Origin: an uncultured Candidatus Saccharibacteria bacterium
GTDB taxonomy: Bacteria; Patescibacteriota; 4484-211; JAGQKX01
Length of the DNA stretch: 64,000 nucleotides
Assembly (NCBI GenBank): GCA_964392315.1
Contig: CAYMOT010000001.1
Span: 9,042-73,041 of the forward strand
Reading direction: 5' to 3'
Part shown: positions 14,446 to 31,987 of the stretch, one piece after another
How positions within the stretch are numbered: position 1 is the stretch's first letter
How the letters are laid out: each line of letters begins with the position of its first letter
Made by a program: the position numbers and the translations under genes
The notes under the pieces: generated by a model
Told to the model about the DNA's origin: nothing
Databases searched by the model: none
What the model saw: only the letters and a program-made list of their open reading frames with translations

Positions 14446-16644
14446 CTATTTACCCTTAGTTGACTTCTTACCTTCCCCAGGCTTGGTCCAACTGGAATAT
14501 TCACACGCCGGATATTGGGAGCAGCCATAGAATACTCTGCCGCGCTTAGTCTTTTTTTGGACTACTTCACCCTCGCCACAGTCAGGACATTTCATGCCAA
14601 TTTTATCCATATAGGGTTTGGTGAATTTGCATTTTGGATAGTTACTACACGCAATAAACGGACCAAAGCGACCCTGCTTGAAGACCAGCGCTCCCCCATC
14701 ATCAGGGCAAAGGCCTTCTAACTGTGTCTGGTCTATGTCACCATTTTCTGTACCGGTGTCTATGGGCGCTGCATACTCGCATTTTGGGTAGTCAGAGCAG
14801 CTGTAAAACTTACCGTATTTGCCGAGCTTAATAATGACTGGCTTACCACACACCGGGCATTTTTCGTTAGTTTTTTCTAGCACAACAACGTCTTCTTTTT
14901 TGATTTCTTTTTTCTTTTTATCCAAAAGCGTACTGAAAGGTCCGTAAAATTCTTTAACCACTGGCTTCCACTTTTTTTCCGCACGTGCAATCCGATCTAA
15001 GTCCTCTTCCATCTCTGCCGTAAAGTCTAAGTCAACAATCTCGGGAAAATGCTTTACCAAAAGATCATTTACAACAAACCCCGTATCTGCAGGCCGAAAC
15101 GCTTTATCTTCCTTCTCAACATATTTGCGCGACAAAATCGTAGCAATGATGTTGGCATAGGTCGACGGACGGCCGATACCGTATTTTTCCAGATCTTTGA
15201 TTAAACTCGCTTCGGTATACCGGGGAGGAGGTTGCGTTGTATGCTCGGTTAGTACAAGATCGATCTGATCTAAGTCATCTCCAACCTGCACCGGAGGCAA
15301 AATTGTTTCCTCAGCCGGCGTGCCTGCGACCTTCATCCAACCCGGAAAGGTAACCCTACTTCCCGTTGCGCGCCACACGACATATTTATCAGTAAGGGGC
15401 TTTTTCTCATCTGAATACACATCAACGCGCATCTGCTGTAGCACCGCGTCTGCCATTTGGCTGGCAACCGCCTTTTCCCAGATCAATCGATAAATCTTCT
15501 GTTGCTCGGGGGTAAGCTTTTTAAATTCAGGACTTTGCAAGGACTTTGTTACATCAGTCGGACGGATTGCTTCATGCGCTTCCTGCGCGGATTTGGACCC
15601 GCTTTTGTAATAACGCGATTCTACCGGAAGGTAATCTTTCCCATACGTCTTTGTGACAAATACACGTGCTTCTTTGATAAATGACTCTGATAATGCGACC
15701 GAGTCAGTACGATGATAGGTGATCAGTCCATTTTCATACAGTTTTTGTGCTACGGACATTACGCGCTTACTCGTAAACCCATACCGATTTACCGCGTTTC
15801 GCTGGAGTCTTGCAGTCGTCAACGGCGGCTGTGGAGACCGTTTCACGGTTTTGTCTTCAATATCTCCCACAATAAAGTGGTGCTTTTTAAAAGCGGAAAG
15901 CAATCGGTCCGCTTCCGGTTTATCGATGAAGATTGACGAAGTGACCGAATACGTTCCCGCAAACAGTTTCAACTTCTTTTGTTTTTCAACTGGCTGCTGG
16001 TTGTATTGCGTAAGCTGAGCGATAAATTGATTTGAACCACTCTTGAGGTGTGCCTGAAAATTAAAATATGGCGTACTGGAGAACTGTTCACGTTCACGTT
16101 CGCGTTCAACAATCAATCGTACCCCCACTGACTGCACACGTCCTGCGGATAGTCCATACCGAATCTTCTCCCACAAAAGCGGCGACAGTTTGTATCCAAC
16201 CAGCCGGTCAAGCACACGACGTGCCTGGTAGGCGTCCACCAAGTCATAATTTACGTCGTGTGGATGTTTAAATGCTTCTTCTATTGCATCTTTCGTTATT
16301 TCATGAAATACCACTCGCTGATATTTTTTGGTTTTTAGACCTTTTGTACCACTTAATGCCTCTTTAACATGCCAGCTGATGGCTTCTCCTTCACGATCCA
16401 AGTCGGTTGCTAAAACAATGATATCTGCATCTTTCGCTGCCTTTTTTAATTCGCTTATTACTTTCCCTTTGCCAGGAATTACCACATACTCGGGCTCAAA
16501 GTTATGCTCAACATCTACCCCGAGACCACTTTTTGGCAAATCAATAATATGCCCTTTTGAGCTAAGAACCTTGTAGTTTTTTCCTAAATATTTACTAATT
16601 GTTTTTACTTTCGTCGGCGACTCGACGATAACGAGAGATTGCAT
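14446..16644 (-). CDS. topA: DNA topoisomerase I
   Basis: MQSLVIVESPTKVKTISKYLG... is the TOPRIM N-terminus. ...LITYHRTDS... carries the catalytic Tyr region. The C-terminus has multiple CxxC...CxxC zinc ribbons. Confidence 0.9.
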   Translation of the reverse strand: MQSLVIVESPTKVKTISKYLGKNYKVLSSKGHIIDLPKSGLGVDVEHNFEPEYVVIPGKGKVISELKKAAKDADIIVLATDLDREGEAISWHVKEALSGTKGLKTKKYQRVVFHEITKDAIEEAFKHPHDVNYDLVDAYQARRVLDRLVGYKLSPLLWEKIRYGLSAGRVQSVGVRLIVEREREREQFSSTPYFNFQAHLKSGSNQFIAQLTQYNQQPVEKQKKLKLFAGTYSVTSSIFIDKPEADRLLSAFKKHHFIVGDIEDKTVKRSPQPPLTTARLQRNAVNRYGFTSKRVMSVAQKLYENGLITYHRTDSVALSESFIKEARVFVTKTYGKDYLPVESRYYKSGSKSAQEAHEAIRPTDVTKSLQSPEFKKLTPEQQKIYRLIWEKAVASQMADAVLQQMRVDVYSDEKKPLTDKYVVWRATGSRVTFPGWMKVAGTPAEETILPPVQVGDDLDQIDLVLTEHTTQPPPRYTEASLIKDLEKYGIGRPSTYANIIATILSRKYVEKEDKAFRPADTGFVVNDLLVKHFPEIVDLDFTAEMEEDLDRIARAEKKWKPVVKEFYGPFSTLLDKKKKEIKKEDVVVLEKTNEKCPVCGKPVIIKLGKYGKFYSCSDYPKCEYAAPIDTGTENGDIDQTQLEGLCPDDGGALVFKQGRFGPFIACSNYPKCKFTKPYMDKIGMKCPDCGEGEVVQKKTKRGRVFYGCSQYPACEYSSWTKPGEGKKSTKGK

Positions 16645-16745: not shown

Positions 16746-17789
16746 TTACTGTATCACATACTGATTGCCACCAATATTTTTTATCAAATTCTCTAGTTCA
16801 AGTTGCATGATTGCGACCGTAACTTCATGCGTAGGTTGGCCTACTGCCACTACCAACTCATCAATATGTTGTTTACGCTGGGAAACAAGCGCAAGGATCT
16901 TTTGTTGTAACGGGTCCTTAATGGTTCGTAGCCTATCAGGGACCTCTGATTTAATAATACCTAGTTGTTCCAAGAGGTCATCAACTGACAACACAATCTC
17001 CGCTCCCTGTCGAATAAGCCAGTGGCAACCAGCACTCTTGTCCGAGTACACCTCACCTGGTACTACATACACATTTTTCCCTTGTTCGGCTGCGATACGT
17101 GCGGTAATGAGCGCACCGCTTTTTGCACCGGCCTCAATAACAATCACTGCCTCGGCCAAGGAAGCTACGATTCTATTTCTTTGCGGGAATGTGTATTTTG
17201 TCGCAAGTTGTTCTGGAAGAAATTCGGAGATAATTGCTCCACCAGCATCAACAACCCGTGGAATAAGCGTCTTATTTTCAGGAGGTACTGGATGCAGGCA
17301 CCCACTCCCCAATACAGCAATGGTCGGTCTGCCTTTCTTGACCGCCGCCCAATGGGCAGTCGTGTCTACCCCACGCATAAAACCAGATACGATTGTGCAA
17401 CCCGTTTCAACAAGTGCCTGGGATATATCCTCAGTAACAGACTTTCCATACGAAGTCATTGCACGAGTTCCCACTACTGCAATACATCGTTCAAATCCAT
17501 CACGTAACGCACCTTTCACAAAGAGCCACAAAGGAGGGTCAGGCAAGATTGCTAAGGCTTTCGGGTATTGTGGGTCCTCACAGGTTACTATGGTGTAACC
17601 ATCATCTGAGGCTTGTTGTAAGCATTCACGAATGCGTACAGTGACCTGCTTTCGGTCGGGTATGCGTGCAGAGTATTTTTCAATAACCGCCTGAATAGAT
17701 AACCCTGCAGCAAGTTCATTGCGTACAGTTCTCGGCCCAACGCCGGTTATATAGTGTGTTAGAAGGTAGTCGATGTCTCTCTCGGTCAT
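16746..17789 (-). CDS. dprA: DNA processing protein DprA (Smf)
   Basis: ...AVVGTRAMTSYGKSVTEDISQALVETGCTIVSGFMRGVDTTAHWAA... is the Rossmann-like DprA core. The conserved dprA-topA adjacency is present. Confidence 0.85.
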   Translation of the reverse strand: MTERDIDYLLTHYITGVGPRTVRNELAAGLSIQAVIEKYSARIPDRKQVTVRIRECLQQASDDGYTIVTCEDPQYPKALAILPDPPLWLFVKGALRDGFERCIAVVGTRAMTSYGKSVTEDISQALVETGCTIVSGFMRGVDTTAHWAAVKKGRPTIAVLGSGCLHPVPPENKTLIPRVVDAGGAIISEFLPEQLATKYTFPQRNRIVASLAEAVIVIEAGAKSGALITARIAAEQGKNVYVVPGEVYSDKSAGCHWLIRQGAEIVLSVDDLLEQLGIIKSEVPDRLRTIKDPLQQKILALVSQRKQHIDELVVAVGQPTHEVTVAIMQLELENLIKNIGGNQYVIQ

Positions 17790-25126: not shown

Positions 25127-25201
25127 ACGGCTGTCGGTTAATTGGCAAACCACGGGTCTCCAAAACCCGGACTGCAGGTTCGAGCCCTGCCAGCCGTGCC
25201 A
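25127..25201 (+). tRNA. tRNA-Trp (anticodon CCA)
   Basis: Acceptor ACGGCTG/CAGCCGT, D-arm GGTT-AATTGGCA-AACC, anticodon arm CGGGT-CUCCAAA-ACCCG, T-arm GCAGG-TTCGAGC-CCTGC. CCA is encoded. Confidence 0.8.
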
Positions 25202-25207
25202 GCACTT

Positions 25208-26074
25208 TCACGAGAGAGCAGCTTCGATCTTCTGTGCCACAGCGTGTAGCTGCTGTATATGAACCTCAGAGAGATTAACATCGTCCAGGCTAGTTCGTTC
25301 AATTCCGTTTTTACCAATAACACAGGGCAAACCAATAGCTACATCTGAACACCCGAACTCTCCATGGGTCATGACCCCAACAGGTAACACGGTCTTTTCG
25401 TCATGAACTATTGCAGAAATCAGCCGCACAATTGCTACCGCCGGGGCAAACATCGTAGACCGATTTCCAAGTAGGCGCACAATATTTTTCGCGCTAAACA
25501 CCACCTCGTGTTCCACACGTTCGTCGTGACCTCCAAGCAACATCATACTATCACCATGCTCCCCTACTACCAGTGCATCTGTCGTTCCTGAATAATATTG
25601 AAACCTCAGCGTATCAAGGATATTTCCAAAACCAATAATCTTTTGTTCTGCAAAGTGTGTGTTCCGGTGTACCCATGTCGTCAGTATATCAACAGGATTG
25701 GTTACAATTACGACAACTGCCTCAGGTGCATGTTCATGAAGAAGAGGAAAAATATCAGAGAATATTTTCAGATTGGTCTCTAGTAATTGATCACGGGAAT
25801 AGTGTTGGTCTTTTGGAATAGAAGCGCCTGCTACACCTGCAGTTACAATAACGATGTCACTATCTTTTGTATCGGCATAATCATACGAGCCGGTTATTTC
25901 TATGTCTCGTCCTTCTGATCCAAGACTATGTAAGATATCAAGCGCACGCCCCTGCGCCACCTCGGCGCGAATATCAAGCAATGCGAGAGATCGAGCAAGA
26001 CCTTTATGTGCTGCAAGAAATGCCACCTGCGAACCTACATCCCCTGCACCAATAAAAGAAATTTTCGAGACCAT
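25208..26074 (-). CDS. L-lactate/malate dehydrogenase family NAD-dependent oxidoreductase
   Basis: MVSKISFIGAGDVGSQVAF... is the Rossmann GxGxxG region. Also ...IVTNPVD... and ...GEHGDSMM.... Length 288 aa. Confidence 0.7.
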   Translation of the reverse strand: MVSKISFIGAGDVGSQVAFLAAHKGLARSLALLDIRAEVAQGRALDILHSLGSEGRDIEITGSYDYADTKDSDIVIVTAGVAGASIPKDQHYSRDQLLETNLKIFSDIFPLLHEHAPEAVVVIVTNPVDILTTWVHRNTHFAEQKIIGFGNILDTLRFQYYSGTTDALVVGEHGDSMMLLGGHDERVEHEVVFSAKNIVRLLGNRSTMFAPAVAIVRLISAIVHDEKTVLPVGVMTHGEFGCSDVAIGLPCVIGKNGIERTSLDDVNLSEVHIQQLHAVAQKIEAALS

Positions 26075-26188
26075 AGTTTACCTATTGTACTTTACTGGAC
26101 AAGTCGCAAATATGTGTCAATCTAATCGTTATATCAGGGATTTAATGAACGACAATTTTTAATGCAAACAGCAATTGTGATGATGTTC

Positions 26189-28930
26189 CTACTCCAGCGC
26201 CGCGCGGACTTTGATTTCTGCTTCGACCACTTCCCTATCTCGACCAAACCGCAGACGTGAAAGTTCCCGCACCATTCCGGCAAGTTCATCATTACGGGTC
26301 ACCGATTTCCAACGGGGATAGTCTGAATACATCGAAAACGGCGTCGACGGCTGACCATTGATGAGAAGCTTCACGTATGCATTACCAATCGTGAGGTTCA
26401 TGATGTCATGTGCGACAAATGTCGGACCAAAGTGGCTTTCTAAGTATTGTGCGTCATCTGAACCTGAGCGAAGGGTAACCATACTCCCCACGTTTCCGAA
26501 TACCGCATCCCTGATTTTTTCATCGATTTGCGAAATAAACTGGTTCGCTACCGTGAGTGACAGTCTGAATTTACGCGCTTCGGACAAAATTTGCGCAAAG
26601 TCCGGCGTTGAGAAGTTCTGAAACTCATCAACGTACAAATAAAAGTCCCGCCGCTCCTCCATCGGCATATCAGCACGTGACATCGCGGCAATGAGAATAC
26701 GAGGGACTAATATTAATCCCAAAAACTGGCTGTTTTCATCTCCTAATTTCCCTTTTGCTAAGTTTACGAGAAGTATCTTTCCATCGTCCATGATCCTTCT
26801 GAAATTAAACGCAGATTGGCTTTGGCCGATGATATTGCGCATGCGTTTTTCGGTGACAAACCGGTCAAATTTTGACACGAAGTAACCCAATGTTTCTGAT
26901 TTATGAAAGTCGCTTGTTTGCGCAATTTCTTTTGTCCAATAATCTCTGACTAATGGATCATCAATGATATCGAGCTTGGTTTTAACGAACTCTGGATCGA
27001 TTAAGAGACGCAGAACCTCAATCATTGAGTTCCCTGGCTCAGCCATTGCCGTGAGCATCACGTTGCGTACTGCACGCTCAAGCCGCGGTCCAATAATACC
27101 GGAGTGGTTTGGATCGTATAACTTGTACAAAAGTCCGATAAACGAGTTGACCGCCATGTGTTTCCCTTGCTCGTTTTCCGCTTCAAGAATATTGAGACCC
27201 ATTGGCCGATCATCATCAGCGGGGTCAAAATAAATAACATCTTCAGCACGCTCTTTTGGCACAATCCGAAGAAGCTCTTCTACCGCGTCACCGTGTGGAT
27301 CAATAAATGCTAAACCTTTGCCATTTAGTATGTCTTGTGCGGCAAGTGACATCATAAATTCTGACTTACCGGTACCAGTCTGTCCCAAAATATACAAGTG
27401 CCTACGCCTATCATCATCCCTGAGAAAGATCTCTCGTTTGACACCACGGAATTCTGAATACCCCATATACAAACCTTCTGTCGGTAAATTCGACGGCGGC
27501 TCAGATCGTTTGAATAATAACCATTTAATCTTAGGCGTCTGGACGTTTTTGTTGGGAAAATGCAAAATCGTCGCTAGCTCCTCAACATTAAGAATGCTTT
27601 GATTATTAAATGGTGGAAAGTAGCGATACAAAAAATCAACGACAAAGGACCTATGAAAATTTGATAAGATTCCACCCTTCTTAGAAAACCCGGCAAGATG
27701 CGGGTTGGCAAATTGTTGAAACGTCCCAACGATATTATCCAAGTTTAGCTTTGCCTTCTCATCAGTGTCTGCTACTGATACAACACGAATTATTACCCCA
27801 AGCCCGAGCTTGGTAATTTTCTTCTTTATCCCTTCCATTTTTTCAGAGTCAATTTGCTTGGGTGACTCCCCTTCTTTGGGAGGCCGTTCTTGAGAACGAA
27901 TATAACTTTTGCCCTTGTTGATCCAACTCTTGCTAACCGGTGAAATAACAAATTGGACAATAGCTTCCTCCCCTGGACCCAACTTGCTTAAGGAACTCGT
28001 TATCAAACTCATTCCATCGCTCTTTAACTCTTCGTGAGATTTAATTGCATAATATGCGGGACCAGAGACCCGTAACTCAGCATATGCAACTTTTCCTTCT
28101 TTTTCGAATATGTTGTATTCAGGGACTTCGGTAATTTCGGCAATGGGATAGGCACCATGTATTTGCTTCTCCATAAACTCTGCCATCTTGGCATCTACAC
28201 CGACAATAAATTTAATGACACTCTCGTCCGCCACGATTTCAAAAGAAAACGATGTTTGGCTATCATATATGCTCCCTATGCTCAGCTTTTCCCCGAGCAC
28301 TGGGATATCTTGTATGAATGACCCTTTGTACAAGCTGGTTAAATTAGAAAAAAGTGATTCAGCAGCCCCAATTTCAATCTCATTGTCCTTTGGAATAAGG
28401 ACTTCAAAAAACTTCATCTGAAGCGATGCTCTCTCTCTCGTTTTGTACTTATCAGGATGAAGCTTTTTGACATGCCGTTCGACAAAACTACTCAACCATC
28501 TAACCGCAGTATGTACGGGGGATTTGAGGCCTTTTGTATAATCCTCAGGCGTCAGTTCAACCTTGAGATCTTTAATGACTTCTTCTACTTCATGCAGTTG
28601 CTGTGTTTCTTTTGTTACGGGGACAGGTACAGCTTCAGGTGCCGACTGCTCATGAGTTTGATTAAGCATTTCAACGGATGATTGAGGCTTCTCTACTGGC
28701 TGGTCTACCGTCTTGATACGTATAGTTTCTATCTGTGCTTGGGTTTCGCTCTTTCTTTCTGCTTCTTTCTGTAGTTGTTCAAGCTTTTCTTCTTGCTGTT
28801 GAGAAGGCACTTCTTGTTTGCGAGCCGGAGCCATCAGGTCACGCAAACGTTTCTGATACTCTTCAGGAGATAATGGTCGCACGGGGGTAGATGATTGAAA
28901 TGTCGCTCCAGAGTCATTCTTATTGGGCAT
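26189..28930 (-). CDS. soluble type-IV-secretion-type P-loop ATPase (VirD4/TraG/TraD coupling-protein-like or VirB4-like) with a ~480-aa N-terminal region of unknown function
   Basis: 913 aa with no TM helices. Walker A ...LYILGQTGTGKSEF... is followed by ...FIDPHGDAVEE.... Walker B ...FYLYVDEFQNF..., then ...RKFRLSLTVANQFISQI...FGNVGSMVTLRSGSDDAQYLE..., matches the T4CP/VirB4 C-terminal pattern. Confidence 0.55.
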   Translation of the reverse strand: MPNKNDSGATFQSSTPVRPLSPEEYQKRLRDLMAPARKQEVPSQQQEEKLEQLQKEAERKSETQAQIETIRIKTVDQPVEKPQSSVEMLNQTHEQSAPEAVPVPVTKETQQLHEVEEVIKDLKVELTPEDYTKGLKSPVHTAVRWLSSFVERHVKKLHPDKYKTRERASLQMKFFEVLIPKDNEIEIGAAESLFSNLTSLYKGSFIQDIPVLGEKLSIGSIYDSQTSFSFEIVADESVIKFIVGVDAKMAEFMEKQIHGAYPIAEITEVPEYNIFEKEGKVAYAELRVSGPAYYAIKSHEELKSDGMSLITSSLSKLGPGEEAIVQFVISPVSKSWINKGKSYIRSQERPPKEGESPKQIDSEKMEGIKKKITKLGLGVIIRVVSVADTDEKAKLNLDNIVGTFQQFANPHLAGFSKKGGILSNFHRSFVVDFLYRYFPPFNNQSILNVEELATILHFPNKNVQTPKIKWLLFKRSEPPSNLPTEGLYMGYSEFRGVKREIFLRDDDRRRHLYILGQTGTGKSEFMMSLAAQDILNGKGLAFIDPHGDAVEELLRIVPKERAEDVIYFDPADDDRPMGLNILEAENEQGKHMAVNSFIGLLYKLYDPNHSGIIGPRLERAVRNVMLTAMAEPGNSMIEVLRLLIDPEFVKTKLDIIDDPLVRDYWTKEIAQTSDFHKSETLGYFVSKFDRFVTEKRMRNIIGQSQSAFNFRRIMDDGKILLVNLAKGKLGDENSQFLGLILVPRILIAAMSRADMPMEERRDFYLYVDEFQNFSTPDFAQILSEARKFRLSLTVANQFISQIDEKIRDAVFGNVGSMVTLRSGSDDAQYLESHFGPTFVAHDIMNLTIGNAYVKLLINGQPSTPFSMYSDYPRWKSVTRNDELAGMVRELSRLRFGRDREVVEAEIKVRAALE

Positions 28931-29068: not shown

Positions 29069-29251
29069 GTGTTTAACAAAGTACGATCGTTTTTACAGAA
29101 TGTGCTTATAGAAATGCGCTTGGTGCATTGGCCCAATCGCACCCGATCTATGAGAATGACCGTTGTTATTTTGGTCATGTGTGTTATTCTAGGCGCATAT
29201 ATTGGCATAATTGACTACGGTTTGACTCGACTTATCACTATACTCATCTAA
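29069..29251 (+). CDS. secE: preprotein translocase subunit SecE
   Basis: 60 aa. ...EMRLVHWPNRTRSMRMTVVILVMCVILGAYIGIID... matches the short SecE form (..EMKKVSWP...). Directly precedes nusG. Confidence 0.8.
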   Translation: MFNKVRSFLQNVLIEMRLVHWPNRTRSMRMTVVILVMCVILGAYIGIIDYGLTRLITILI

Positions 29252-29269: not shown

Positions 29270-29815
29270 ATGACTTTGACAAAAGGCTCCAACGAACCAC
29301 GTTGGTATGTGGTGCATACGTACAGTGGCCACGAAAATAAAGTAAAAGTAAATTTAGAAAGCCGTATTCACCTCTTTGGTGTTGCGGATCAAATTGCAGA
29401 GGTGTTTGTGCCAACGCAAGAAAAAATCGAGATACGCGACGGCAAAAAGACTGAAATAACCGAGCGGATCTTTCCCGGTTATATTTTGGTAAAAATGATT
29501 CTCGATGACCGTACCTGGTCGGTTGTCCAGCACACCCCTGGCGTCACTGCATTTGTGGGTACAACTCAGCGGCCAAAGCCTATTTCTGATGAGGAAGTAG
29601 AAGGAATTCGACGATTCTCACAACAAGAAGCTCCACAGTATAAAGCGAAGTTCTCTGTTGGTGAAGCCCTTAAGATTATCGATGGACCGTTTGCGGATTT
29701 TATCGGAACCGTTGACTCTATAGACGAAGATAAAGGGAAACTACAAATCCTTGTTTCAATTTTTGGACGCGAAACACCAGTTGAACTTGACTTTTTACAG
29801 GTAAGCAAACTGTAA
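29270..29815 (+). CDS. nusG: transcription termination/antitermination factor NusG
   Basis: NGN domain ...RWYVVHTYSGHENKV...FPGYILVKM.... C-terminal KOW ...FSVGEALKIIDGPFADFIGTV.... Confidence 0.9.
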   Translation: MTLTKGSNEPRWYVVHTYSGHENKVKVNLESRIHLFGVADQIAEVFVPTQEKIEIRDGKKTEITERIFPGYILVKMILDDRTWSVVQHTPGVTAFVGTTQRPKPISDEEVEGIRRFSQQEAPQYKAKFSVGEALKIIDGPFADFIGTVDSIDEDKGKLQILVSIFGRETPVELDFLQVSKL

Positions 29816-29869
29816 TCCATTGACAACACGCAGATAAACAACTATATACAGTTGGATAATTTTTGAATT

Positions 29870-30295
29870 ATGGCAAAGAAATTAAAGACGACATTAAAAT
29901 TAAATTTGACCGCTGGACAAGCGAATCCAGGACCCCCACTCGGTCCGACACTCGCGCAACATCGCGTAAACCTCATGGAATTCGTCACTGCGTATAACGA
30001 GAAAACACGTGATCGAATGGGTGAACAAGTACCCGCATTGGTAAGTGTGTATGAAGATGGGTCCTTTTCTTTTGAATTACGAAAAGCTCCTGCGGGCGCA
30101 CTTTTGCTAAAAGCACTGCGCAAGGACGCTGGATCAGGTGAACCGAACAAAAAAAAGATTGGTAAATTAACAAAAAAGGATCTAGTACCATTAGCAGAAG
30201 AGAAAATGGAAGACCTCAACGCGAAGACAATAGATGCCGCGGTGAATACACTCGCTGGCACCGCCCGCTCGATGGGTATTGACGTGACAGAGTAA
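29870..30295 (+). CDS. rplK: 50S ribosomal protein L11
   Basis: MAKKLKTTLKLNLTAGQANPGPPLGPTLAQHRVNLMEF... is canonical uL11. Confidence 0.9.
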   Translation: MAKKLKTTLKLNLTAGQANPGPPLGPTLAQHRVNLMEFVTAYNEKTRDRMGEQVPALVSVYEDGSFSFELRKAPAGALLLKALRKDAGSGEPNKKKIGKLTKKDLVPLAEEKMEDLNAKTIDAAVNTLAGTARSMGIDVTE

Positions 30296-30372
30296 AATTA
30301 ATAAACAAATATACAAATAAGCAAATTTCAAAATAATTGGACATTTGCATATTGGTTTATTTGCTTATTAAA
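30296..30372. promoter_or_regulatory. inverted AT-rich element (AATAAGCAAAT ... ATTTGCATATT ... ATTTGCTTATT) in the rplK-rplJ spacer; candidate internal promoter or L10-leader region
   Basis: Read directly. The motif family is shared with sites at 28953-29013, 40595-40630 and 63903-63957. Confidence 0.35.
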
Positions 30373-30438
30373 CTTTTGTTCCAATGACCGTGAGGGATCC
30401 GACTACACGTCGAGATTTAAATATCCTCCGCAGGACGT

Positions 30439-30963
30439 ATGCCGAACCAAAAGAAAGAAGATACCATTACATCAATCCGTGAAAAGCTCTCCACGTCAGA
30501 GGCGGTAGTATTCTCTGATTATCGCGGTTTATCAGCAACCAAAGTTGAAAAGCTTCGTAATATCCTCCAAGAAAAAGGCGGTTCCTACCATATTTTCAAG
30601 AACACATTAATTAAACTTGCACTTGAACGAGAAGGTTATCCGCAACTTGATGATTCAACTCTTGAAGGTCCTACCGCCATGCTCTTTGCACATACAGAGC
30701 CTGCTGAAATTCTCAAAGCATTACACGAGTTTAGTAGCGAAAATGAGCTGCCTGTCATTAAAAGCGGCTATTTTGGTAAAGATATTATCACCCCTGACAA
30801 AGTAAAGAGTATTGCAAATTTGCCACCGCTACCTATACTTCATGCGCAATTGGTTGGCCAGCTCAATGCACCTATTTCTCAGTTTGTCTATCAATTAAAT
30901 GGAATGCTTTCAAAACTCGTCTGGACATTACAGGCAGTTAAGGAAGCAAAAGAGACACAATAA
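30439..30963 (+). CDS. rplJ: 50S ribosomal protein L10
   Basis: ...[30 protein letters not shown]... is the canonical uL10 N-terminus. Upstream of rplL. Confidence 0.85.
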
Positions 30964-30998
30964 GAGCATATTCTTATTACTCTTACCTTGGAGGTGAA

Positions 30999-31388
30999 TT
31001 GATCATGAACGAAAAAGTACAAGAAATTATCACAAAAGTTGAAGAGTTAACCGTACTAGAACTTGCTGAACTAGTTAGTGCGCTAGAGGAAAAATTTGGT
31101 GTTGTCGCTGCAGCACCGGTTGCCGCAGCAGCTCCAGCAGGAGGCGGCGCAGCTGCAGGTCCAGCTGAGGAAAAGACCGAATTTACTGTCGTCATTACCG
31201 CATCTGGCGATCAAAAGATCAATGTCATTAAGGCAGTACGCGAACTGAATGGCGAACTCGGCCTCAAAGAGGCAAAAGATTTGGTCGACAATACTCCTTC
31301 AAACATTTTAGAGAATGTTGATAAGGAAAAGGCAGAAGCTGCAAAGGCTAAGCTGGAAGAAGTCGGCGCAAAGGTGGAGCTTCAGTAA
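30999..31388 (+). CDS. rplL: 50S ribosomal protein L7/L12
   Basis: The N-terminal dimerisation helix is followed by an Ala/Pro/Gly hinge ([20 protein letters not shown]) and a C-terminal domain ...[25 protein letters not shown].... Confidence 0.9.
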
Positions 31389-31558: not shown

Positions 31559-31987
31559 TTGATATACTTCAAACCATCAAAACCTATGACAAACACCGTG
31601 CTCTTTCCAGATTACCCCGAACTCCTGACAACTAAAGAAGTCGGCAAAATTTTGGGGGTACAGAAAATTACACTCATAAGATGGGCAAAAAGCGGCAAAT
31701 TGGTTCCTGAAATTCGCCTCAATGAACGAGGAGACAAGCGCTATACTAAAAGACAAATATTGGCATTCCTCGGTCAGACAACCCCTGAGACTCCCCTCTT
31801 TGCTGATTACCCTGACTTGTTAACGACAAAACAGGTATGCGCCATGCTCAGCGTTCGTAAGGTGACCCTCATTCGCTGGGCAAAAAGCGGACAGCTCGTT
31901 CCTGAGATTCGCCTTAATGAGCGGGGAGACAAACGCTACACCAAACCTCAAATCTTTGCATTCTTAGGCCTCACGTATGGCATGTAG
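31559..31987 (+). CDS. protein made of two tandem excisionase/MerR-type (HTH_17-like) helix-turn-helix domains
   Basis: Two ~70-aa repeats: FPDYPELLTTKEVGKILGVQKITLIRWAKSGKLVPEIRLNERGDKRYTKRQILAFLG and FADYPDLLTTKQVCAMLSVRKVTLIRWAKSGQLVPEIRLNERGDKRYTKPQIFAFLG. The duplication is visible at the DNA level. Confidence 0.6.
   Translation: MIYFKPSKPMTNTVLFPDYPELLTTKEVGKILGVQKITLIRWAKSGKLVPEIRLNERGDKRYTKRQILAFLGQTTPETPLFADYPDLLTTKQVCAMLSVRKVTLIRWAKSGQLVPEIRLNERGDKRYTKPQIFAFLGLTYGM

Follow-up and report, generated by a model that had tools for sequence, protein, structure and literature searches.

The gene considered here lies at 26189..28930 (stop codon included) on the minus strand of a 64,000-nucleotide stretch of DNA from an uncultured Candidatus Saccharibacteria bacterium (assembly GCA_964392315.1, contig CAYMOT010000001.1, positions 9,042 to 73,041), which as a whole is called the window in the following. 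It codes for a 913-aa ATPase which resembles the coupling proteins (T4CPs) of type IV secretion systems (T4SSs) and belongs to a family, named here after its DUF8128 domain, that is widespread in Patescibacteria. Tentatively, we read the protein as a domesticated DNA translocase of the coupling-protein type that works with the recombination and cell division machinery; the form found in the window is fused to a partner protein and has no transmembrane (TM) helix. According to this reading a coupling-protein gene was fixed by Patescibacteria as a chromosomal housekeeping gene, and its product would be a P-loop translocase that presumably forms a hexamer and has its ancestors among the VirD4-type coupling proteins of monoderm and archaeal conjugation systems. 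Most members of the family are anchored in the membrane through a single N-terminal TM helix, in place of which the WWE3-type clade of the window protein has the helix of the fused partner. ATP would be spent on moving or remodelling DNA around the products of homologous recombination and during cell division, much as FtsK or SftA do, and not on feeding a relaxase-DNA complex into a secretion channel. What suggests a role in chromosome processing is that the neighbours of the gene in relatives are Xer and DivIC or a cluster of an LCP-type gene, the ATPase, yebC, ruvCAB and xer, that T4SS genes are almost never adjacent, and that some members are fused to an S1 domain.

Architecture and predicted structure

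A preliminary description of this DNA, made from the letters alone, had proposed a T4SS-type ATPase on the strength of a Walker A motif, an IDPHGD motif following it, a Walker B motif and some further residues, and all of these are present in the 913-aa open reading frame (ORF). Counted from the N-terminus, and with all coordinates on the minus strand, the protein begins with a charged low-complexity arm, largely disordered (residues 1-125; 28556..28930), which is delimited by pLDDT and by its likeness to separately encoded partner proteins. Then comes a partner-protein motif, LTPEDYTKGLKSPVHTAVRWLSSFVERHVKKLHP, located by a profile of the partner, tblastn and alignment and forming an amphipathic helix (residues 126-159; 28454..28555). 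It is followed by the DUF8128 domain with an alpha/beta fold (residues 170-485; 27476..28423), a nucleotide-binding domain (NBD) which is T4CP-like, TrwB being the relative both by sequence and by fold (residues 486-875; 26306..27475), and a C-terminal helix pair with the pattern ELSRLxxGRDxxxVExEIxxRA, defined by conservation and by the model (residues 881-913; 26192..26290). The NBD contains Walker A, GQTGTGKS (residues 516-523; 27362..27385), and Walker B, FYLYVDE (residues 763-769; 26624..26644), with an all-helical insertion modelled between them (residues 587-716; 26783..27172). Across 120 aligned sequences residues G516, T518, G519, G521 and K522 of Walker A are invariant, as are Y766, V767, D768, E769, F770 and Q771 in the Walker B region; in the helix pair S891 is invariant and R892, G896, E905 and R909 are nearly so. 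Because both Walker motifs and many other residues do not vary in these sequences, the ATPase is probably enzymatically active.

A full-length AlphaFold2 model, built with 120 homologues, has a pLDDT of 85.6 and a pTM of 0.74, and pLDDT falls below 50 at residues 1-16, 36-42 and 76-106. The insertion between the Walker motifs is modelled as eight helices (H587-605 to H710-716, pLDDT ~90) and would be the counterpart of the all-alpha domain of T4CPs; the C-terminal helices are placed at 881-895 and 899-909. Foldseek gave TrwK/VirB4 of R388 as the best match to the full-length model (E 3e-16, ~886 columns). The C-terminal half matches TrwB with a TMt of 0.56-0.61 over ~415 of 427 residues, and also resembles Cagbeta, DotL and HerA (TMt ~0.5 for HerA). 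When PDB was searched by sequence the significant matches were solely TrwB (phmmer E 1.7e-6) and DotL, and by hhalign TraD is a somewhat better match to the NBD than TraC or FtsK is. Together with the homologue in a Bacillus conjugation locus described below, these matches of sequence and fold bear out the T4SS-type identity and put the ATPase into the VirD4/VirB4 clade of the HerA-FtsK superfamily.

The N-terminal half had been described as a region with no recognisable motif. This did not hold, as both the window protein (P0001) and its homologues carry PF26449 (DUF8128); residues 170-485 are the part aligned, with 10 invariant columns. It should be noted that the PF26449 assignments are precomputed annotation, the family not being part of the Pfam set used for the direct domain scan. 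A structure prediction of this half, which had been suggested as a check, turned out confident (pLDDT 91.2 and pTM 0.90 for the DUF8128 domain modelled alone). In a Foldseek search of PDB, TrwK/VirB4 chains take the first 13 places among the matches to this model (E 2e-7 to 2e-5, TMq ~0.5), and the matches that follow, at about E 1e-3, are unrelated oxidases. Since the separate model matches TrwK/VirB4 chains alone, DUF8128 is predicted to have the fold of the VirB4 N-terminal domain. The likeness is stated at the level of the fold only, because hhalign of DUF8128 against the N-domains of F TraC and pCF10 PrgJ gave a probability below 1% and thus no sign of homology to these VirB4 N-domains at the level of sequence profiles.

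The DUF8128-ATPase family

The best 120 homologues all have PF26449 at the N-terminus and a T4CP-type ATPase at the C-terminus. They are named 'type IV secretion system DNA-binding domain-containing protein' or 'TraM recognition domain-containing protein' in the source records, and they come from Microgenomates lineages, WWE3 and 'Patescibacteria group'. Full-length homologues are 49-80% identical to the window protein, an identity of ~50% being kept across Microgenomatia, WWE3 and Dojkabacteria, and a partial homologue from 'candidate division WWE3' (P0007) is 72% identical; by this likeness WWE3 is the most likely origin of the window, a core stretch of a Patescibacteria chromosome. A second subfamily, from Dojkabacteria, WWE3 and CPR3, has ~34% identity over residues 172-906. 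Relatives are found in the genomes of at least 597 GTDB species (species representatives), and DUF8128 by itself makes up 1579 clusters at 50% identity. Two WWE3 proteins of the second subfamily (P0362 and P0359) have a fused C-terminal S1 (OB-fold) nucleic-acid-binding domain at residues ~828-918 (E 1e-20).

Some members are much longer, 1400-2000 aa, with ~700-1200 additional residues at the C-terminus (P0183, P0214, P0226, P0227, P0252, P0257, P0259 and P0260). For P0183, P0214, P0226, P0257 and P0259, which fall in the 1000-2000 aa class of long DUF8128 proteins, the additional region matches no Pfam family. Three loci (L057, L083 and L085) have two adjacent family ORFs each, which may have arisen by tandem duplication or be the pieces of one gene that is split or frameshifted.

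Coupling-protein homologues have been counted in Patescibacteria: 5713 of the VirD4 type in 2918 genomes, or about two per genome with no assigned role, of which 148 are near virB4 (Quinonero-Coronel et al. 2025, PMC12102498). The authors state that exaptation of these homologues 'cannot be ruled out' (PMC12102498). The DUF8128-ATPases are probably among the proteins counted. A literature search found no paper using the name DUF8128. The family is recognised but uncharacterised, so that the gene is not categorically new; the literature searched contained nothing on the likeness of the DUF8128 fold to VirB4, on the partner protein or its fusion, or on the linkage to Xer, DivIC and RuvABC.

Replacement of the membrane helix by a fused partner

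The protein had been called soluble, and for the window protein this is correct: no TM segment, hidden or otherwise, was found in the 913 residues (Kyte-Doolittle, 19-residue window), the maximum hydropathy of 1.46 lying inside the ATPase core. It is not typical of the family, in which one N-terminal hydrophobic helix followed by basic residues is present in 97 of the 120 close homologues and, in the second subfamily, in 113 of 120 members. The clade of the window protein (P0001-P0021) is without this helix and has a hydrophilic extension of 100-170 aa in its place. Given how common the helix is in both subfamilies, the soluble form is a derived state.

The origin of the extension became clear when the neighbour genes were clustered across 85 related loci. 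In 24 of these a small partner gene (90-280 aa) is located directly upstream of the ATPase gene on the same strand, and in 22 of them the distance between the two is -11 to +31 bp. The partner protein has no TM segment; its N-terminus is of low complexity, and its C-terminus carries the conserved motif LPLTxxxxxxGLxxxxxxSxRWLAEWCxRxxK. A hidden Markov model (HMM) of this C-terminus matches the TM-less homologues only, and precisely at the junction (residues 126-159 of the window protein with E 2e-7, other homologues down to E 3e-14); tblastn with the motif finds the window protein with E 3e-4. The helix formed by these residues has a hydrophobic moment of 0.58. The restriction of the HMM matches to TM-less proteins, and their position, show that in the window clade the partner gene has been fused in frame to the ATPase gene, so that an amphipathic helix takes the place of the TM helix. 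The fusion also accounts for the charged low-complexity stretch that the preliminary description had noticed at the start of the protein: the stretch is there, and by the partner HMM it is a fused partner protein. A separate partner gene, Xer or DivIC was not found elsewhere in the 64-kb window, where the only trace of the partner is the fused motif within the ATPase ORF.

Two other interpretations of the upstream proteins were tried and rejected. The 'LPLT...' of the partner could be taken for a sortase sorting signal, which is refuted by the lack of a glycine and of an N-terminal signal peptide, by the polar stretch that follows, and by its internal position in the fusions. That the LytR_C proteins encoded upstream of the second-subfamily ATPases are homologues of the partner was not borne out by the HMM, which gave no match to them.

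Chromosomal neighbours in related genomes

The commonest neighbour of the first subfamily, to which the window protein belongs, is a tyrosine recombinase of the Xer type, found in 35 of 70 informative loci in convergent orientation with 0-4 genes between. These recombinases score as XerA/C/D with E ~1e-46, and the range over the recombinases of both subfamilies is E 1e-46 to 1e-77. DivIC/FtsB comes after Xer in 29 of the 70 loci, and the Xer-DivIC pair is kept while the upstream context changes between at least five types, in orders of Microgenomatia as well as in Dojkabacteria.

For the second subfamily seven loci were examined (L090-L094, L096 and L097). Six of them have the same co-directional arrangement: a gene for a LytR_C membrane protein, the ATPase gene, 0-2 other genes, yebC and ruvC. 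Three of these six continue with ruvA-ruvB, and five have a Xer-type recombinase gene further downstream. In the seventh, L090 from WWE3, the gene next upstream of the ATPase is that of CTP synthase, the LytR_C gene is several genes away, and the contig ends with no more of the arrangement than yebC. The cluster contains other genes worth mentioning: the LytR_C/LCP-like protein is single-pass, a protein of ~265-340 aa without a Pfam match is encoded between ruvB and xer, and dnaB is often found a few genes upstream.

Genes for VirB4, VirB6 or VirB8 adjoin the ATPase gene in none of ~95 related chromosomal loci. The sole T4SS-related neighbours in any chromosomal locus seen are arrays of 1-4 tandem T4SS pilin genes (PF18895, E 5e-12) in three Dojkabacteria loci (L073, L077 and L078), located 7-8 genes (~6-8 kb) upstream of a subfamily-1 ATPase and separated from it by SpoIID-like, bPH_2 and SmpB genes.

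Plasmid and viral relatives

Relatives outside the chromosomal family are found on plasmids. The Bacillus subtilis plasmid NRS6116_2 (L100, 11827-15918) codes for a homologue, also of 913 aa, which is 25% identical over residues 228-873 (E 6e-45) and includes the DUF8128 part. Its gene immediately precedes a replication-relaxation gene in a conjugation locus of the Tcp type, which has genes for TcpD, TcpE and an AAA_10 VirB4-type ATPase. On haloarchaeal plasmids a separate DUF8128-like gene abuts the gene of a TraG-D_C/T4SS-DNA_transf ATPase, close to pilin and 'conjugal transfer' genes; on the Haloterrigena plasmid pHTS138 (L098, 7758-12051) a DUF8128-like gene of 399 aa overlaps the start of a T4CP-like ATPase gene of 1034 aa. 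As a side observation, both NRS6116_2 and pHTS138 are rated non-mobilizable by MOB-suite despite their conjugation-type genes.

Since the plasmid homologues sit at the coupling-protein position of conjugation loci, the family descends from the proteins that take this position in the conjugation systems of monoderms and archaea (FATA-type). This is in line with where the T4SS of Patescibacteria is proposed to have come from.

Relatives of the ATPase part only, 360-680 aa long and without DUF8128, are encoded on 13 viral contigs of IMG/VR (L101-L113). They are 27-41% identical to the C-terminal half and thus closer than the full-length plasmid homologues examined (~25%). The window protein is also matched by PHROG 5156, of unknown function (E 3e-72), and by mad8 of PADLOC (E 1.5e-18).

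The tRNA-Trp/secE junction

The preliminary description regarded the ATPase gene, together with a dehydrogenase gene, as an orphan inserted at a conserved junction between tRNA-Trp and secE. ARAGORN and the ORF calls place all of these genes where they were said to be. The left edge of the junction is rpmG (ribosomal protein L33; 24884..25054, plus strand), with the translation MAKDRREKFNMVCQNCGEYNY... and PF00471 on the same-position gene in relative L087. It is followed by tRNA-Trp (CCA; 25127..25201, plus strand), the gene for a dehydrogenase of the lactate/malate dehydrogenase (LDH/MDH) family (25208..26074, minus strand) and the ATPase gene. The right edge is secE (29069..29251, plus strand), a 60-aa ORF divergent from the ATPase gene and identified through PF00584 on the 60-aa orthologues in L001 and L002, and then nusG-rplK-rplJ-rplL (29270..31388, plus strand; ORFs, with Pfam annotation of the orthologues). 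The orphan status was also borne out. No T4SS genes are found within ~20 kb of the ATPase gene or elsewhere among the ORFs of the 64-kb window, and the ORFs around it are of housekeeping type (MreB/C, PBP2, DprA, TopA, def, fmt, glycogen synthases, aminoacyl-tRNA synthetases, ATP synthase and RadA).

The insertion, however, has to be given up. The order rpmG/tRNA-Trp-ATPase-secE-nusG is shared by relatives L001 and L002 (79% identity), L087 (67%), L086 (66%) and L006 (~58%), only the LDH/MDH-like gene being missing there. The G+C content of the ATPase block is 0.42-0.45, as in the rest of the window, with no compositional shift, and no integrase, repeats or other mobile-element genes are found between tRNA-Trp and secE. 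The native G+C, the gene order conserved down to ~58% identity and the wide vertical distribution over at least 597 species rule out a recent horizontal insertion; the gene is not a recent arrival at this junction. More distant members of the family are located between nusA and dnaJ, or by RNR and other housekeeping genes. In Patescibacteria the family is passed on vertically as a core gene, at chromosomal positions that vary. A promoter and terminator scan of the block was uninformative, its signals being no higher than expected from shuffled sequence.

The one lineage-specific piece of the block is the LDH/MDH-like gene, which is absent from this position in the syntenic relatives L001, L002, L086 and L087. 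Its 288-aa product has the Ldh_1_N (E 4e-33) and Ldh_1_C (E 8e-16) domains, as expected from its first description as a lactate/malate dehydrogenase, and it is a short divergent form which scores under the NCBIfam equivalog cut-offs. It keeps the catalytic Arg/Asp/Arg/His, has deletions of ~8 aa and ~23 aa flanking the catalytic His, and its substrate-specificity loop is atypical. Only three close relatives (87, 51 and 49% identity) are found among 5.8 billion proteins, the next best being at most 37% identical. The gene is probably co-transcribed downstream of the ATPase gene.

Some other genes of the window deserve mention. Directly 3' of rplL a 142-aa protein (31559-31987, plus strand) with two tandem HTH_17/MerR-like repeats is encoded, and it is found at the same place in L001, L002 and L087. 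The gene for the DNA-processing and recombination mediator DprA (16746-17789, minus strand) adjoins topA (14446-16644, minus strand), ~9 kb from the ATPase gene. Two MreB paralogues are encoded in this one 64-kb window of a reduced genome (21028-22122 and 37424-38461, both on the minus strand), with mreC and the PBP2 gene adjoining the first.

Comparison with known ATPases

With the other DUF8128-ATPases of Patescibacteria the window protein shares the architecture, homology over the full length, the invariant catalytic residues and a chromosomal site away from virB4; it differs from most of them by the fused upstream partner in place of the N-terminal TM helix.

The T4CPs (TrwB, TraD, DotL, Cagbeta and the Tcp/CD1115-type) share with it the RecA-like NBD with the all-alpha insertion, the model having a TMt of ~0.6 to TrwB, and the Walker A neighbourhood 'GxTGTGKS...DPxGD'; the plasmid homologues also adjoin a relaxase-type gene. 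Where T4CPs have a membrane domain of two N-terminal helices, the window protein has a domain of ~300 aa that resembles the VirB4 N-terminal domain, and its relatives have one helix. Relaxase and T4SS neighbours accompany the plasmid homologues only and are absent for the chromosomal family (the 64-kb window and ~95 loci), in which the ATPase is a core gene. The profile searches that had been proposed to settle the assignment gave a divided answer. Similarity to T4CPs is present but below the thresholds: in Pfam TrwB_AAD_bind scores 19.7 against a gathering threshold of 20.5 and TraG-D_C 20.8 against 22, T4SS-DNA_transf does not match, and the NCBIfam models of TraD/VirD4 give 30-48 bits against cut-offs of 250-650. 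Homologues such as P0165 and P0362 do pass the curated T4CP cut-offs.

With VirB4 proteins (TrwK, TraC and PrgJ) it shares the two-domain layout, the predicted fold of the N-domain and the small protein encoded upstream, which is sometimes fused. VirB3 is such a small protein: its gene precedes that of VirB4, and in some systems the two are fused. The differences are that the partner of the window protein has no TM segment, that its N-domain has no sequence match to TraC or PrgJ, and that VirB3, VirB6 and VirB8 neighbours were not found. The VirB4 model TIGR00929 gives the window protein E 0.15 and 10 bits against a cut-off of 643, and the Pfam families AAA_10 and CagE_TrbE_VirB do not match it. 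Patescibacteria encode a separate bona fide VirB4.

FtsK, SpoIIIE and SftA belong to the same ATPase superfamily. The membrane tether of most family members and the gene linkage to Xer, DivIC and RuvABC in relatives point in their direction, and SftA is a precedent for a soluble chromosome translocase. In model bacteria RuvABC, Xer and a septum-associated DNA pump all take part in the formation and resolution of chromosome dimers. The window protein differs from this group by its N-terminal domain, by a score of 14.4 bits against a cut-off of 24 for FtsK_SpoIIIE (PF01580), and by an hhalign alignment to the E. coli motor which covers 27 columns around Walker A only. It has no match to the Ftsk_gamma winged-helix domain, its C-terminus being the 33-residue helix pair.

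HerA, CedB and CedD resemble it at the superfamily level. DUF87 scores above the Pfam cut-off (27.4 against 23.2), and in NCBIfam CedD reaches E 4e-6 to 9e-6 and CedB E 4e-4, corresponding to ~25 bits against a cut-off of 600. A HAS-barrel and the NurA or CedA partners are lacking.

Possible functions

The data show where the family comes from, its fold, the fusion, its standing as a core gene and its linkage to other genes in relatives; DNA as the substrate, the hexamer and the link to Xer and the divisome are inferred. Several points weigh against the tentative reading of the family as chromosomal DNA translocases. The functional evidence is gene context throughout, and the Xer, DivIC and ruv genes are absent from the 64-kb window itself. 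The synteny within Microgenomatia may partly reflect shared ancestry. A pump tethered at the septum would be expected to need a membrane anchor, which the window clade does not have. The protein does not have the alpha/beta/gamma organisation of FtsK, and its alignment to the E. coli motor is confined to the surroundings of Walker A. FtsK itself is reportedly present in Saccharibacteria. A chromosomal T4SS is present in ~80% of Patescibacteria genomes, and a T4CP is often encoded far from virB4, so an action in trans on such a system is conceivable. The pilin arrays 7-8 genes upstream of the ATPase in the three Dojkabacteria loci point the same way.

An alternative that we consider rather unlikely, and still the best placed of the rivals, makes use of these last points. 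It supposes that the ATPase is the coupling protein, or a second VirB4-like ATPase, of a chromosomal T4SS encoded elsewhere, where it would recruit DNA or protein substrates and energise their passage during the epibiotic interaction with the host. The T4CP ancestry and fold and the plasmid homologues at the T4CP position are what this alternative predicts, and the VirB4-N-terminal-domain-like domain could dock VirB3- or VirB8-like partners. The distance between T4CP genes and virB4, with VirB4 in ~80% of Patescibacteria genomes, and the pilin arrays also fit. However, VirB4, VirB6 or VirB8 adjoin the ATPase in 0 of the ~95 loci, the recurrent neighbours being Xer, DivIC and RuvABC, and T4CP homologues are found in 2918 genomes, VirB4 in 2417. 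Relaxases are almost absent from Patescibacteria, and in S. epibionticum the t4cp gene is non-essential whereas the T4SS is essential (PMC12102498).

A more specific version of the chromosomal reading we hold to be doubtful. It takes the DUF8128-ATPases as the Patescibacteria counterpart of FtsK/SftA: a coupling protein captured early would clear DNA from the division site and activate or assist Xer in resolving dimers after RuvABC has acted, the partner being an adaptor to the division site or to Xer. It may then replace FtsK in Microgenomatia, WWE3 and Dojkabacteria. A tblastn search with the E. coli FtsK motor gave nothing at E <=1e-3 in 1.39 Mb of Patescibacteria DNA, a small and biased sample made up of the window and ~92 loci which is no proof that FtsK is absent from the genomes, and no paper dealing with FtsK or Xer in these three groups was found.

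It is improbable that the protein is a motor for import or export of DNA, similar to the archaeal Ced/Ted ATPases or to the T4CP of Neisseria DNA secretion, which would feed recombination or nucleotide salvage without a classical T4SS. The weak NCBIfam similarity to CedD and CedB, the membrane anchor of most family members, the linkage to ruvCAB and xer and the presence of dprA 9 kb away in the window could be read in this manner. Against this, the matches to Ced are far under the curated cut-offs (25 against 600 bits), no channel candidate (CedA-like, ComEC or VirB6) is found among the conserved neighbours, and Patescibacteria already have ComEC-dependent transformation (PMC12857230).

Least of all do we believe that a mobile element once integrated here and left this gene behind, or that an ATPase of phage, plasmid or defence origin was recently transferred to the side of tRNA-Trp: the adjoining tRNA gene, the plasmid relatives, the 13 IMG/VR contigs, PHROG 5156 and PADLOC mad8 may call this to mind, but it is largely refuted by synteny and distribution, the block being without integrase, repeats or element genes, native in composition and conserved in order to ~58% identity, and the family occurring in at least 597 species, always amid housekeeping genes and with invariant catalytic motifs.

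Implications

A large part of the diversity of bacteria belongs to the Patescibacteria. A VirB4-like N-domain and a VirD4-like motor in one protein bear on how the two ATPases of T4SSs diverged, and the fusion has, in the way of a Rosetta stone, brought out an obligate small partner. The linkage to Xer, DivIC and RuvABC gives a testable hypothesis, namely that the family takes part in chromosome dimer resolution or segregation, and genetic tools have by now become available for some Patescibacteria. Should the role on the chromosome be false, the family would be the missing coupling ATPase of an essential T4SS without relaxase. Should it be true, the bacteria with the most reduced genomes would have domesticated a DNA pump of mobile elements for their cell cycle, and if the ATPases are indeed the counterpart of FtsK/SftA, a housekeeping function of the cell cycle would be run by a motor derived from a T4SS.

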